This document shows positions 3,112-37,027 of a stretch of 37,104 nucleotides of DNA, in pieces. A program made the translations under genes and the position numbers. The stretch lies in the NCBI RefSeq assembly GCF_003334315.1, contig NZ_QOWR01000047.1, one strand, 5' to 3'. The notes beneath the pieces are model-generated. The model was not told the origin of the DNA. It saw only the letters and a list, made by a program, of their open reading frames with translations, and ran no database searches. Every line of letters begins with the position of its first letter. The first letter of the stretch is position 1. The DNA comes from Escherichia coli (GTDB lineage: Bacteria > Pseudomonadota > Gammaproteobacteria > Enterobacterales > Enterobacteriaceae).

Positions 3112-3674
3112 CCGTGGAAGTGCGTCCAGAGGATCTGGACGCCGATGCCGATCAGTACCAGCCCGCCGAGAATTTCCGCTTTTTTCCCAATAATTGAGCC
3201 GATAAAGCGACCAACCATCATCCCTAATGTTGACATAATCAAGGTTGCACAACCAATGGCCAATGCGGTCGCGATAATGTTGACCTGCAGGAAAGCAAGA
3301 CCAACACCCACAGCCATGGCATCCAGGCTGGTGGCAATCGCGGTGGTTACCAGTAGCCAGAAACCGTGTCGACGGCGCGGCTCTTCATCTTCATCATCTG
3401 CGCCACGAAAACCCTCAATAATCATTCGCCCGCCGAGGAATATCAGCAGCACAAACGCAATCCAGTGGTTCCATTCAAGGACAAACCGGCTGGCTAACAT
3501 GCCCATTCCCCAGCCGATCAGCGGCGTCAGGGTTTCGACGGCACCAAAAATAAGGCCGGTTCGCAATGCTTCAGAAAATTTCGGTTTATGGAGGGTGGCA
3601 CCTTTACCGATTGATGCAGCAAATGCATCCATCGACATACCAAACGCAAGAAGAACAGTAGCAGTGATATTCAT
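3108..3674 (-). CDS. mntP: manganese efflux pump MntP (188 aa)
   Basis: Start placed at the internal ATG (plus 3672-3674) giving [21 protein letters not shown]..., which is 188 aa; the 206-aa track ORF extends 18 codons upstream. Multi-pass membrane protein with an acidic loop ([14 protein letters not shown]). Confidence 0.88.
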
Positions 3675-3689
3675 GACAATGTCCTGACC

Positions 3690-13195: not shown

Positions 13196-14557
13196 TTACT
13201 TCTCCAGTTGGCGTAATATCTTATTAACTTTATCAAAAGTTTCCTGATATTCCGCTTCTTCCTGGCTATCGGCGACAATTCCACCGCCCGCAGAGCAGTA
13301 TATTTGTCCGTTAATGGCAGTCAGCGTGCGGATAGTAATGCTGGTATCCATGTTGCCGCAAAAGCTCAAATAGCCAATGCTGCCGCACCAGGCATTACGT
13401 CGCTGCGGTTCCAGTTCGTCGATAATTTCCATAGCCCGTACTTTCGGAGCCCCGGTTATTGAGCCACCAGGAAAAGCTGCGCGCAGCAGATCGCTGGCGT
13501 GTAACTGTTCTGGTAGTCGCGCCGTTATAGTGCTGACCAGATGATGCACGGCAGGGAAGGGTTCCACCACGAAGAGCTCTGGTACTTTTACCGAACCGGC
13601 TACGGCAACACGACCGATATCATTACGCATTAAATCGACAATCATCAGATTTTCGGCACGATCTTTCGCTGAGTTCGCCAGTTTTTCTGCTTGTTTGCTA
13701 TCTTCCTGAGGATCGGGCAGGCGTGGTAGCGTGCCTTTAATCGGGCGGGTCTGGATTTCACTATTATCACAAAGAATAAACCGCTCTGGCGAAAGGCTTA
13801 AAATTGCACCCTGTTCAAGACGTAAAAAAGCGCTAAATGGCGCGCGGTTGGCCTGATTAAGCTGAAGGAATGCCTGCCATTCATCGCCAGAATAGGTCGC
13901 ATGAAAACGCTGGGCGAGATTCACCTGATAGCAATCACCGCTGTGCAGATATTCCTGTACCTGGCGAAATTTTTCGCCGTACTGCTCGCGGGTCATATTG
14001 GATTGCCAGTCGGAAGTGAGCGTGAAATCTTCCTGCGGCGAGAATTGCTGGCTTTCCAGCCAGGCCCGACGGGCATTGACATCATTATGACTCAGCAAAG
14101 AAACTGTATGACGCTGGTGGTCGACAATGAGCGCCCAATCGTAGATACCCACTGCCATATCCGGCAGAACGATATCTTGTTCCGCAATTTCTGGCAGTGA
14201 CTCAAAACGGCGGCCCAGATCGTAGCCAAACAACCCCAGTGCGCCGCCCTGAAATGGCAAATCTTCGTTATGCGTTGGGCGAATGTCTGCGCGATCCAGC
14301 ACCTGCTGGAGCACCTGTAGCGGGTCATCAGTGGTCGTTGTGCGTTTTTCGCTTTCACTAACAACGGTTTCTTTACCGAAAGTGGTTAAAGTGCAAATCG
14401 GATCGGCGACCACAATATCAAAGCGGCTATACGGATGATCGGCATAGCCGGAGTGTAAAAGCATCGCCCACGGCAGGTGGCTTAAGCGGGAGAAATAAAA
14501 TTCAGCGGCGTCCTGACGCCAGGGTAAAGTAATCACAGCGGGAGATAACGTCTTCAT
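13196..14557 (-). CDS. pabB: aminodeoxychorismate synthase component I, PabB
   Basis: 453 aa; chorismate-binding motif RPIKGTLPR; 3 nt upstream of nudL. Confidence 0.95.
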   Translation of the reverse strand: MKTLSPAVITLPWRQDAAEFYFSRLSHLPWAMLLHSGYADHPYSRFDIVVADPICTLTTFGKETVVSESEKRTTTTDDPLQVLQQVLDRADIRPTHNEDLPFQGGALGLFGYDLGRRFESLPEIAEQDIVLPDMAVGIYDWALIVDHQRHTVSLLSHNDVNARRAWLESQQFSPQEDFTLTSDWQSNMTREQYGEKFRQVQEYLHSGDCYQVNLAQRFHATYSGDEWQAFLQLNQANRAPFSAFLRLEQGAILSLSPERFILCDNSEIQTRPIKGTLPRLPDPQEDSKQAEKLANSAKDRAENLMIVDLMRNDIGRVAVAGSVKVPELFVVEPFPAVHHLVSTITARLPEQLHASDLLRAAFPGGSITGAPKVRAMEIIDELEPQRRNAWCGSIGYLSFCGNMDTSITIRTLTAINGQIYCSAGGGIVADSQEEAEYQETFDKVNKILRQLEK

Positions 14558-33786: not shown

Positions 33787-34608
33787 ATGATGCACAGGTT
33801 GAATCTCAATGGCTATGAACCCGACCGACACCATGAAGCCGCGGTCGCATTTTGTATTCACGCCGGAACGGATGAGTTAACCAGTCCTGTACATCAGCAC
33901 CGCAAAGGACAGCTGATACTGGCGCTACATGGTGCAATTACCTGTACGGTGGAAAATGCTTTGTGGATGGTGCCGCCACAATATGCGGTTTGGATACCGG
34001 GCGGGGTGGAACATAGCAATCAAGTAACAGCTAATGCTGAACTCTGTTTTCTGTTTATCGAACCCAGCGCAGTGACAATGCCGACAACATGTTGCACATT
34101 GAAAATATCGCCCTTATGCCGGGAATTAATTTTAACCCTGGCAAACAGGACGACGACTCAGCGTGCTGAGCCAATGACCCGCAGATTAATTCAGGTCCTG
34201 TTTGATGAACTCCCTCAGCAGCCACAACAACAGCTGCACCTGCCCGTTTCTTCTCATCCTAAAATCCGCACGATGGTGGAGATGATGGCGAAAGGGCCTG
34301 TCGAGTGGGGGGCATTGGGGCAATGGGCTGGCTTTTTTGCGATGAGTGAACGCAATCTTGCCCGACTGATAGTAAAAGAGACGGGGTTGAGTTTTCGCCA
34401 GTGGCGTCAGCAGTTACAGCTGATTATGGCGCTTCAGGGATTAGTGAAAGGCGATACTGTACAGAAAGTTGCTCATACGCTGGGGTATGATTCAACAACG
34501 GCCTTTATTACTATGTTTAAGAAAGGCCTGGGGCAAACGCCAGGCCGATATATTGCGAGATTAACTACTGTTTCCCCACAATCAGCGAAACCAGACCCGC
34601 GGCAATAA
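33787..34608 (+). CDS. nimR: AraC-family regulator NimR (YeaM)
   Basis: 273 aa; cupin-like N-terminal half and C-terminal AraC-type HTH region. Confidence 0.88.
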
Positions 34609-35011
34609 GCGGCCCAACCGGTACGCCGCGAAACAGCGCTACGCCTAAAACAGTGCCTACCAGCAGCCCGGCGACCAGTTGCGGCTGGCTGCCCATTAAC
34701 GTCACGCCGCGCCCACCCAGCCAGGAGACAATCACGCCTACTGCAATCGCCACCAGTGATTTCCAGTTCAGAAACGAGTGAATCAAGGTTGAGGGCGGTA
34801 GCGTCCCGCTGGCGATGGGGGCCATAACGCCAATCGTCAGAATGATTATCCCGATACTTAGCCCCTGTTTTTCAATCCACGGAAAAAAGGTGCTTAACGG
34901 TGTGACGCGGACAATGATTAACACCAGAATTGAAACGGCGACAGTGGTGTTATGACTGATAAAGCCCAGCGCAGCTAACCCGAGCAGGATCAGCAAAGTG
35001 ACATCAAACAT
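34565..35011 (-). CDS. yeaL: UPF0756 membrane protein YeaL
   Basis: 148-aa polytopic membrane ORF; its 3' end overlaps the 3' end of nimR by 44 nt. Confidence 0.85.
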
Positions 35012-35112
35012 CGTGGTTTCCTTGCCAAAAAATAATAAGCCTGCTTACTTTACGCTTGCTGCAGGAAGGAAGTAGAAAATCTTTACGTTTTTTGCATAAA
35101 AAATCAGGCGAA

Positions 35113-35130
35113 CTGTCATCAAACTGCCAT
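35113..35130 (+). promoter_or_regulatory. Pho-box-like direct repeat upstream of yoaI
   Basis: CTGTCAT-CAAA-CTGCCAT, about 50 bp upstream of the yoaI ATG, approximates the PhoB box as I recall it (CTGTCAT-A(A/T)A(T/A)-CTGTCA(C/T)). Confidence 0.4.
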
Positions 35131-35180
35131 TTGTGCACGCTAACAATAACGTGAAAACAGCTATCTCCCGGGGGCATGCT

Positions 35181-35285
35181 ATGAACGATCAAATGTTTGT
35201 CGAGACACTGATTATCACGTCATCGTTTTTTGCCATTGCTGTTGTACTGGTTTTGTCCGTTCTTCTTATCGAACGGACCGGCTAG
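35181..35285 (+). CDS. yoaI: YoaI, 34-aa hydrophobic peptide
   Basis: Manual translation [34 protein letters not shown]-stop (TAG 35283-35285). Confidence 0.7.
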
Positions 35286-35789
35286 TTACGCAGTGCGGCG
35301 GAAATTGACCAGTTCTGGTTGCGCAATGCGCAAATAATCCGCGGTTTTCAAAATAACGGATTTATCCAGCATGCCTGCATTGAAGGCGATTTCATCAAAT
35401 CGTTCGAAGAGTAGAGGGTCGGCAACCAGTTTGAGTTTTGGATGGAAGCTGAAAGGGGGGATCGCGCCGAAGACACAGCCTGTGAGTTCATCGACTTCCG
35501 CCGGGCTGGCCAACGAAGCGCGTAATCCGCCTATATGGCTGGCGAGTTGGCTCAGATCGGCCTGTTGATCGGCTGCGAGGATCGCCAGAACATGTTGATT
35601 TACGCCATTGCCTTTGACTTTACATACCAGTGCCTTAGCACCCTGGCCTAGAGCGGTGCCACGAATTTCTGACACCGCTTCACATTTACCTACCGCTTCA
35701 TGGGTAACGACGCGGAAGTCAGCACCTTCTTGTGATAATAAAGCGATTAACCGCTGATGCGTCACGCTTCCTTTAGCCATTTCAGTCAT
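35286..35789 (-). CDS. yeaK: YbaK/ProX-type aminoacyl-tRNA deacylase YeaK
   Basis: 167-aa ORF; its stop codon abuts the yoaI stop. Confidence 0.85.
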   Translation of the reverse strand: MTEMAKGSVTHQRLIALLSQEGADFRVVTHEAVGKCEAVSEIRGTALGQGAKALVCKVKGNGVNQHVLAILAADQQADLSQLASHIGGLRASLASPAEVDELTGCVFGAIPPFSFHPKLKLVADPLLFERFDEIAFNAGMLDKSVILKTADYLRIAQPELVNFRRTA

Positions 35790-35831
35790 TTCACGCTCCT
35801 GAGATTACAAGCAAACAACCACAGAAGGTTA

Positions 35832-37027
35832 TCATGAACGGCTGTTTTTGTTCTGCTTATTGACATATAAACGCTCATCGGAAGCTTTATACGCATCATG
35901 TAACGTATCGTTTTCTTTCATCGCGTAAATACCGGAAGAGAAGCCGATCTCTTTCTGCGGCGCGATATGTTGCAGACGTTTTTCGATACGTTCAGGCAGT
36001 TGTGCTGCAATTTGCGGCGTCGAATCGACAAGAATGATGCAGAATTCATCGCCACCGAGTCGGATGGCATAATCACTTTTACGAATCGACTGTTTAATCG
36101 CCTGAGCTAATAACGTAATCGCTAAATCCCCCTCCTGATGACCGAGGGTGTCATTTATTTGCTTTAACTTGTCCATGTCAATAGCAATAAACATCACCGA
36201 AGAACCGGATTGCACCAGTTTCTGCAACCGCTGCTCCAGTTCAGGGGTTAAAATTTTGCGATTATACAGTCCAGTCATCGCATCACTAATATTTTCTCGC
36301 GACACATTTTGGTATAAACGGAAGTGCATCCGCACCATATTCAGCAAAATTAACGCCGTCAAAATCCAGAACAGAACGCTTTTCCACGAAGACGTGATAA
36401 AGTAAAGAATATCAATGGATAACGAGACACGAATGCCGCCCGGTAAGTCATGGACGTAACTGACATACTGGAACAGATTATCTTCGCTCTGGTTGATGAT
36501 AATGTCGCGCCCCGAATCGGTATCGGTTAGCGTGACATTGAGAAAACGCCAGAGGAGAGGGCGGTCATGAGTATAAAAGATATTCCGCAGATTGTTTTTG
36601 TTAATATCCAGCAGCACAATCCCTTTTAGCTGCCCTGCGACATATACCGGCGTCAGCAAACTCATCACGTTCTGTTTAGTACGCTGATCCTGGTAAATGC
36701 TCGACAATACGGTACGCCCGGTAAATACCTTTTCAATATCTTTGCGATCGATGCCAATACTTCCTGACTGCAGGAAGGACCAGTTATTCATCGCAAAGTA
36801 TTCAACATTAACCGGCTCATAAAAATAGACATAGCGGTCATTGAGATCGAGATAATAGTGAAATTTCTCTTCGGCCATCCCAAGACCTGAACCGTAATCA
36901 TCCTGGTGGCGGTTGCCTTCCACTGCCTGATCAAAAGCGGGTAATAGTGCTGCAGCTTCCACAATTGTGTCGCAGTCAGTGGATGCGGTTTGTAGTGTGC
37001 CGCGTAAGCCCGGGTATTTATGGGCAG
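35832..37027 (-). pseudogene. dgcJ: diguanylate cyclase DgcJ (YeaJ), 5'-truncated by an IS insertion
   Basis: GGDEF motif (RLGGDEFCIILV) and one TM segment. The ORF cannot extend upstream: stops occur in all three minus frames within 37039-37067, and the first 12 codons of the 410-aa track ORF are IS-derived. About 398 native codons remain versus about 496 aa recalled for K-12; a periplasmic-type sensor region with no upstream TM or signal peptide. Confidence 0.7.

Follow-up and report, generated by a model that had tools for sequence, protein, structure and literature searches.

The stretch of DNA analyzed here (the window, 37,104 bp of Escherichia coli sequence) contains the small gene yoaI between its divergent neighbor yeaL and its convergent neighbor yeaK (Table 1). 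A 169-bp intergenic region separates yeaL from yoaI and holds a Pho box, the end of which lies exactly 50 nt from the yoaI ATG (35181). Over 501 bp around the Pho box, the sequence is 100% identical to the yeaL-yoaI-yeaK region of E. coli K-12 MG1655, and this region was found in 5,412 of 5,426 complete E. coli genomes, where it is annotated as yeaL / yoaI / yeaK. The 86 bp bearing the promoter were present at an identity of at least 99% in 3,143 genomes. In MG1655, yoaI is b1788 (NC_000913.3, 1874078-1874182, minus strand), and the window corresponds to the reverse strand of NC_000913.3 from approximately 1872259 to 1909362, such that subtracting a window coordinate from 1909363 gives the reference coordinate. 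A PhoB ChIP peak assigned to yeaC (1861798) was also considered; it lies outside this interval and so is not in the sequence analyzed.

Two further observations were made around yeaL. The gene nimR/yeaM (33787-34608, + strand) and yeaL overlap at their 3' ends by 44 bp (34565-34608). An Rfam scan of positions 34400-35900 returned only a subthreshold JUMPstart match inside yeaL (20.9 bits; gathering threshold, 35; E = 0.13), which was dismissed.

Table 1. Features of the yeaL-yoaI-yeaK locus in window coordinates
Feature	Position	Strand	Evidence
Pho box, one PhoB-dimer site	35113-35130	+	Sequence reading, matrix score, conservation, published site
Half-site CTGTCAT	35113-35119	+	Direct reading
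A-rich spacer CAAA	35120-35123	+	Direct reading
Half-site CTGCCAT	35124-35130	+	Direct reading
10-bp spacer TTGTGCACGC, Pho box to -10 hexamer	35131-35140	+	Distance as in pstS, phoA, and phoB
Putative -10 hexamer TAACAA	35141-35146	+	Geometry; TA-initial hexamer at the same offset in most orthologues
Putative transcription start, ~7 nt past the -10	35152-35155	+	Inference only
Shine-Dalgarno-like GGGGG, 6 nt 5' of the ATG	35170-35174	+	Direct reading; conservation
yoaI CDS, 34-aa single-pass membrane peptide	35181-35285	+	ORF, MG1655 annotation, NF041475 match
yeaK, mischarged aminoacyl-tRNA deacylase, convergent with yoaI	35286-35789	-	167-aa ORF, MG1655 annotation
yeaL, DUF441 membrane protein, divergent neighbor of yoaI	34565-35011	-	ORF, MG1655 annotation

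The Pho box and the yoaI promoter

A preliminary description of this DNA, made from the letters without database searches, had placed the repeat CTGTCAT-CAAA-CTGCCAT about 50 bp before the yoaI start and called it a near match to the PhoB consensus. Both statements were borne out, as the repeat is read on the + strand at the expected place and differs from the consensus CTGTCATAWAWCTGTCAY at two positions. It was the sole match to this consensus with three or fewer mismatches in the 37,104 bp. The expected number of such matches in the window is 0.09, and at least one match was present in 9 of 100 shuffles. The second half-site, CTGCCAT, departs from the consensus by having C for T, which counts against the match.

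For the matrix scan that the preliminary description had proposed, a PhoB log-odds matrix was derived from 58 other ChIP-seq sites published by Fitzgerald et al. (mBio 2023, PMC10294691, Table 1), with the yoaI site left out. Far from scoring below threshold, the Pho box was the best match in the window on either strand, with a score of 16.3 bits for the scored site at 35114-35131. In a leave-one-out ranking of the 59 PhoB ChIP-seq sites it was placed 13th, above those of ugpB, phnC, phoE, and amn. When the whole window was Markov-shuffled 500 times, 63 of the shuffles also reached 16.3 bits somewhere; taken alone, the motif is only marginally beyond chance in a 37-kb window (p ~0.1) and is weak evidence. 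The Pho box is convincing because it lies between genes, within the 169-bp region, and is on the right strand, because a -10-like hexamer follows at exactly 10 bp, and because orthologues conserve it.

The next-best matches to the PhoB matrix in the window were both on the minus strand, at 14075-14092 (AGTCATAATGATGTCAAT, 13.7 bits) and 3672-3689 (GGTCAGGACATTGTCATG, 13.3 bits). No ChIP-seq peak listed by Fitzgerald et al. (Table 1) corresponds to either of them, and thus score alone does not predict binding. No second Pho box or additional half-site was found in the 169-bp intergenic region, where the next-best score was 2.1 bits and the only half-sites with two or fewer mismatches were the two already known.

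The Pho box is followed by the 10-bp spacer and the hexamer TAACAA, and fills the position where a -35 hexamer would be. The best -35 candidate, sought 16 to 18 bp upstream of TAACAA, matches TTGACA at three of six positions, and a sigma70 -35/-10 scan of positions 34900-35900 identified no promoter on the + strand. The one promoter-like match in that scan was on the minus strand, inside yoaI, and at chance level. The lack of both a usable -35 and a + strand sigma70 match is as expected of an activator-dependent promoter. TAACAA is without the conserved final T, which counts against it as a -10. With TAACAA as the putative -10, transcription would start near 35152-35155 and the 5' untranslated region (UTR) would be about 27 nt long.

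The preliminary description had also suggested comparing the site with published members of the Pho regulon, and the pstS, phoA, and phoB promoters were taken from NC_000913.3 for this comparison. The pstS promoter has CTGTCAC followed by CTGTTTGTCC and TATTTT, the phoA promoter has TTGTCAC followed by GGCCGAGACT and TATAGT, and the phoB promoter has CTGTCAT followed by AAATCTGACG and CATAAT. The spacing from the box over 10 bp to the -10 is the same in yoaI as in all three.

Conservation of the Pho box with yoaI

YoaI itself is too short for a protein search, and orthologous loci were instead anchored on the neighboring YeaL, giving 80 loci from species-representative Enterobacteriaceae genomes. 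Using tblastn and a small HMM, a yoaI orthologue was identified beside yeaL in 32 of the 80 loci. Together with that of the window, 33 yoaI promoters were thus available, from the genera Escherichia, Citrobacter, Salmonella, Trabulsiella, Enterobacter, Kosakonia, Yokenella, Pluralibacter, Cedecea, and Pseudenterobacter. In 29 of the 33, a box scoring 12 bits or more was present on the sense strand, 44 to 61 bp before the start, and shuffled 220-nt upstream regions of the yoaI orthologues reached 12 bits at a rate of 0.6% per sequence. On the antisense strand of the same 33 upstream sequences there was no box of at least 12 bits, the highest score being 10.9. Degenerate boxes of 7.8 to 11.7 bits were found in two Kosakonia, Dryocola, and Cedecea sulfonylureivorans and count against strict conservation.

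Most orthologues have a TA-initial hexamer at the same 10-bp offset from the box, with variants that include TATCAA in Citrobacter, TAAAAA in Enterobacter soli, and TATGAA in Kosakonia. A GGGG or GAGG element at the Shine-Dalgarno position is also kept in most of them. In an alignment of the 135 nt upstream of yoaI from 15 species, the flanks could not be aligned and, besides the start codon, invariant columns were confined to the half-sites.

The remaining 48 yeaL loci, which are without yoaI, include the Citrobacter freundii group, Klebsiella, Raoultella, Kluyvera, Buttiauxella, and Leclercia. In none of the 48 was a box of at least 12 bits found on either strand within 400 bp upstream of yeaL. 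As the box is missing wherever yoaI is missing, it is to be assigned to yoaI rather than yeaL. In the six groups named, about 140 bp separate yeaK from yeaL, and this spacer contains no yoaI and no Pho box.

Other conserved or rearranged sequences were noted in the same region. A palindrome, TTTTCAGGC-N4-GCCTGAA, is conserved between yeaL and the Pho box in Citrobacter, Salmonella, Pluralibacter, and Kosakonia, lying approximately 60 to 80 nt upstream of the box in seven loci. E. coli is without this palindrome and has a different conserved block, AAGCCTGCTTACTTTACGC, beside the yeaL start. In E. coli SL124 (NZ_CM194971.1, 334432-335526), the IS5-like element ISKpn26 and an associated deletion were found at the yoaI locus. 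Part of nimT is gone, as are nimR, yeaL, and the Pho box of yoaI, and homology resumes at the position corresponding to 35140 of the window, before the -10. Judging from this arrangement, yoaI of SL124 should have lost PhoB control.

The YoaI peptide and the junction with yeaK

The identification of yoaI as a gene for a 34-aa membrane peptide in the preliminary description agrees with the 34-codon ORF, with a full-length match to an established family, and with a hydrophobic segment in the product. Against the NCBIfam equivalog HMM NF041475 ("small membrane protein YoaI"), YoaI scored 79.8 bits (cutoff, 45) and was matched over positions 1 to 34 of 34. Residues 12 to 30 have a mean Kyte-Doolittle value of 2.7 and form a single hydrophobic transmembrane segment. 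Near the C terminus, the motif SVLxLE (S26-V27...E31) is retained in most of the 32 orthologues; the exceptions are CVL in two Kosakonia-like loci and a change of E to D in Dryocola and Cedecea sulfonylureivorans. Residues S26, V27, and E31 have been reported as invariant (Vellappan et al., Sci Signal 2025; preprint PMC11429745), and the same work describes YoaI as a membrane protein that binds and activates EnvZ through Glu31, an account repeated in a 2025 review (PMC12648545). Low Mg2+ raises the amount of YoaI protein with transcription unchanged and independently of PhoQ (PMC11429745), and the Pho box therefore cannot account for all regulation of YoaI. The putative 5' UTR and early coding sequence (35154-35230) folded no more stably than shuffled sequences (z = +1.0), and thus offers no structural clue to the published posttranscriptional control in low Mg2+.

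At its 3' end, yoaI directly abuts yeaK, as had been noted from the sequence: the yoaI stop codon TAG (35283-35285) touches the yeaK stop codon TAA (the complement of 35286-35288) with a gap of zero, the junction reading ...GGC TAG|TTA CGC.... In the 29 orthologous loci that also hold yeaK, the stop-to-stop distance ranged from about -4 to +18 bp. No intrinsic terminator was found on the + strand in positions 34900-35900, and the 115 nt after the yoaI stop (35286-35400) folded no better than shuffles (z = -0.6), giving no sign of a hidden terminator. With abutting stops and no + strand terminator, yoaI transcripts would have to run antisense into yeaK. Judged across the 29 yeaK-containing loci, the absence of room for a terminator before yeaK is a conserved feature.

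ScriptSeq is a directional library kit. The RNA-seq libraries of Fitzgerald et al. were made with it, and in their Table S1 yeaK has 389 and 413 reads in the wild type versus 709 and 655 in ΔphoB, and is hence about 1.7-fold lower when yoaI is on (PMC10294691). The difference (log2 -0.8, q = 0.0115) just misses the q < 0.01 used by those authors. This drop fits a modest interference from PhoB-driven antisense transcription, and could equally be an indirect effect. Both yeaK-yoaI and yeaL-nimR are listed among 165 convergent overlapping-transcript pairs of MG1655 identified from RNA-seq coverage (ExcludonFinder, NAR 2025, PMC12288877). The pair thus resembles convergent excludons in being cataloged as having overlapping transcripts, in this case with neither intergenic space nor a terminator; the sole hint of lowered expression of the partner is the yeaK change given above. 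It is conceivable, though rather unlikely, that PhoB-driven transcription of yoaI acts as an antisense or collision brake on yeaK, triggered by phosphate starvation. If so, a translational-fidelity factor, the mischarged-tRNA deacylase YeaK, would come under indirect Pho control. A literature search found no paper tying the yeaK-yoaI overlap to the Pho regulon or to altered yeaK output.

PhoB control of yoaI and comparison with known systems

The preliminary description had proposed that yoaI is controlled by phosphate limitation. The matrix score, the promoter geometry, and the cross-genus footprint agree with this proposal, which had already been demonstrated experimentally (PMC10294691, PMC11429745). 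The center of a PhoB ChIP-seq peak is at 1874218 of NC_000913.3, which corresponds to position 35145 of the window, 15 bp away from where the box ends, and the MEME site reported under this peak, TGTCATCAAACTGCCATT, is exactly the box described here (PMC10294691, Table 1). Expression of yoaI is not Pho independent, as its RNA level is 12,266 in the wild type versus 28 in ΔphoB (log2 8.8, q = 7e-210); by the same measure, the effect of PhoB on yoaI lies between those on pstS (log2 9.6) and phoA (7.6) (PMC10294691, Table S1). Occupancy by RNA polymerase (RNAP) within yoaI is PhoB dependent, sigma70 occupancy is lower in ΔphoB, and the PhoB site is conserved in related species (PMC10294691). The reporter fusion that the description had put forward as a check is likewise in print: a PyoaI-YFP reporter was induced in low phosphate only with phoB (PMC11429745). 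In E. coli O157:H7, phosphate starvation induces Z2828/YoaI on arrays (Chekabab et al. 2014, PMC3978041), and Fitzgerald et al. cite this study and Yoshida et al. (2012) for earlier O157:H7 evidence. The feature is therefore a known, experimentally validated promoter of the Pho regulon, and the interpretation made from the sequence was correct and not new.

The regulatory effect at yoaI is very large, yet ChIP enrichment there falls in the lowest class, 1 (PMC10294691), which counts against the PhoB reading. Occupancy and output are thus mismatched at 35113-35130, with a ChIP score of 1 (pstS, 38) beside an RNA change of approximately 440-fold that is among the largest of the regulon. The PhoB used for ChIP in that study was tagged and partially functional.

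Whether the box could be a chance look-alike with no regulatory role, yoaI being driven otherwise, was weighed. Approximately 13% of shuffled 37-kb windows hold an equal-scoring site and the consensus was matched in 9 of 100 shuffles; in addition, the majority of E. coli PhoB ChIP sites are transcriptionally inert and the ChIP score at yoaI is just 1 (PMC10294691). However, a look-alike would not be expected to lie at an exact 10-bp spacing from a -10 with no -35, or to be kept in 29 of 33 yoaI promoters although the flanks have fully diverged, and the published 440-fold PhoB dependence, RNAP and sigma70 occupancy, and reporter activity refute it (PMC10294691, PMC11429745), leaving this reading a negligible probability. 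Slightly less improbable, yet still very hard to sustain, is that the box serves the divergent yeaL, or both genes, and not yoaI alone. It does lie in the intergenic region shared by the two genes, and the ChIP peak is named "yoaI/yeaL" (PMC10294691), but its orientation and spacing suit the + strand -10, 102 bp separate it from the start codon of yeaL, the RNA of yeaL is not PhoB dependent (36 versus 67, q = 0.28; PMC10294691), and a box of at least 12 bits was present in 0 of 48 yeaL loci without yoaI.

The identity of the product was also considered, as a GTG ORF at 35133-35285 is present in the same frame as yoaI and could specify 50 aa from GTG 35133 (or a product from GTG 35151) in place of the 34-aa YoaI. 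GTG 35133, however, lies upstream of the putative -10 and so would be outside the mRNA, and the N-terminal extensions are entirely different between genera. The 34 positions of NF041475 are matched end to end and GGGGG lies 6 nt before ATG 35181, and published ribosome profiling of initiation sites and tagging take YoaI as 34 aa (PMC11429745). A longer product is accordingly given next to no weight.

In the sequence at 35113-35285, the E. coli gene yoaI is preceded by what is almost certainly its own PhoB-dependent (class II-like) sigma70 promoter. The present analysis gave the motif and its score, the geometry of the promoter, and the findings that the motif is conserved and occurs together with yoaI, and PhoB occupancy, PhoB-dependent RNA, RNAP and sigma70 occupancy, reporter activity, membrane localization, and the EnvZ interaction were taken from the literature. 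Under the proposed mechanism, phosphate limitation would lead PhoR to phosphorylate PhoB, a dimer of which would bind the two 7-bp direct repeats head-to-tail. Positioned in place of the missing -35, 10 bp before the weak -10 TAACAA, PhoB would recruit sigma70-RNA polymerase, and the outcome would be the approximately 440-fold switch in yoaI mRNA. The short mRNA, with its putative 5' UTR of ~27 nt, would be translated from ATG 35181, giving an inner-membrane peptide of 34 residues with a single pass. In the published work, YoaI binds EnvZ via Glu31 and raises EnvZ-OmpR output, and thereby links the phosphate and the osmotic/envelope signaling systems.

As the site, its occupancy by PhoB, the regulatory effect, and the function of the EnvZ-activating peptide are all published, little new knowledge is added here. 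The locus serves as a positive control, in which a reader without tools recognized a genuine, validated Pho box and a small-protein gene from sequence alone. Two modest points are contributed. The Pho box co-occurs strictly with yoaI in the Enterobacteriaceae, which assigns it to yoaI and not to yeaL, and the conserved stop-to-stop abutment with yeaK, together with the small PhoB-dependent drop in yeaK RNA, points to possible transcriptional interference.

Compared with canonical Pho promoters, that of yoaI shares with pstS, phoA, and phoB an 18-bp box in which two 7-bp direct repeats are phased at 11 bp, a box that ends exactly 10 bp before the -10 and replaces the -35, and a strong PhoB dependence of transcription. 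It differs in having one box where pstS has two in tandem, in its weak ChIP enrichment (score of 1 versus 38 at pstS), and in driving a 105-nt monocistronic small-protein gene and not a phosphate-acquisition operon. At the level of its product, yoaI resembles the small-protein connectors between two-component systems, namely, MzrA acting on EnvZ, SafA on PhoQ, PmrD on PmrB/A, and MgrB on PhoQ (PMC11429745, PMC12648545). Connectors have in common that their transcription is under one two-component system and that the small protein binds a sensor kinase or regulator belonging to another system and modulates it (PMC11429745, PMC12648545). YoaI, at 34 aa, is unrelated in sequence to MzrA, SafA, PmrD, and MgrB and links PhoR-PhoB to EnvZ-OmpR, and its abundance is also raised posttranscriptionally in low Mg2+ (PMC11429745).
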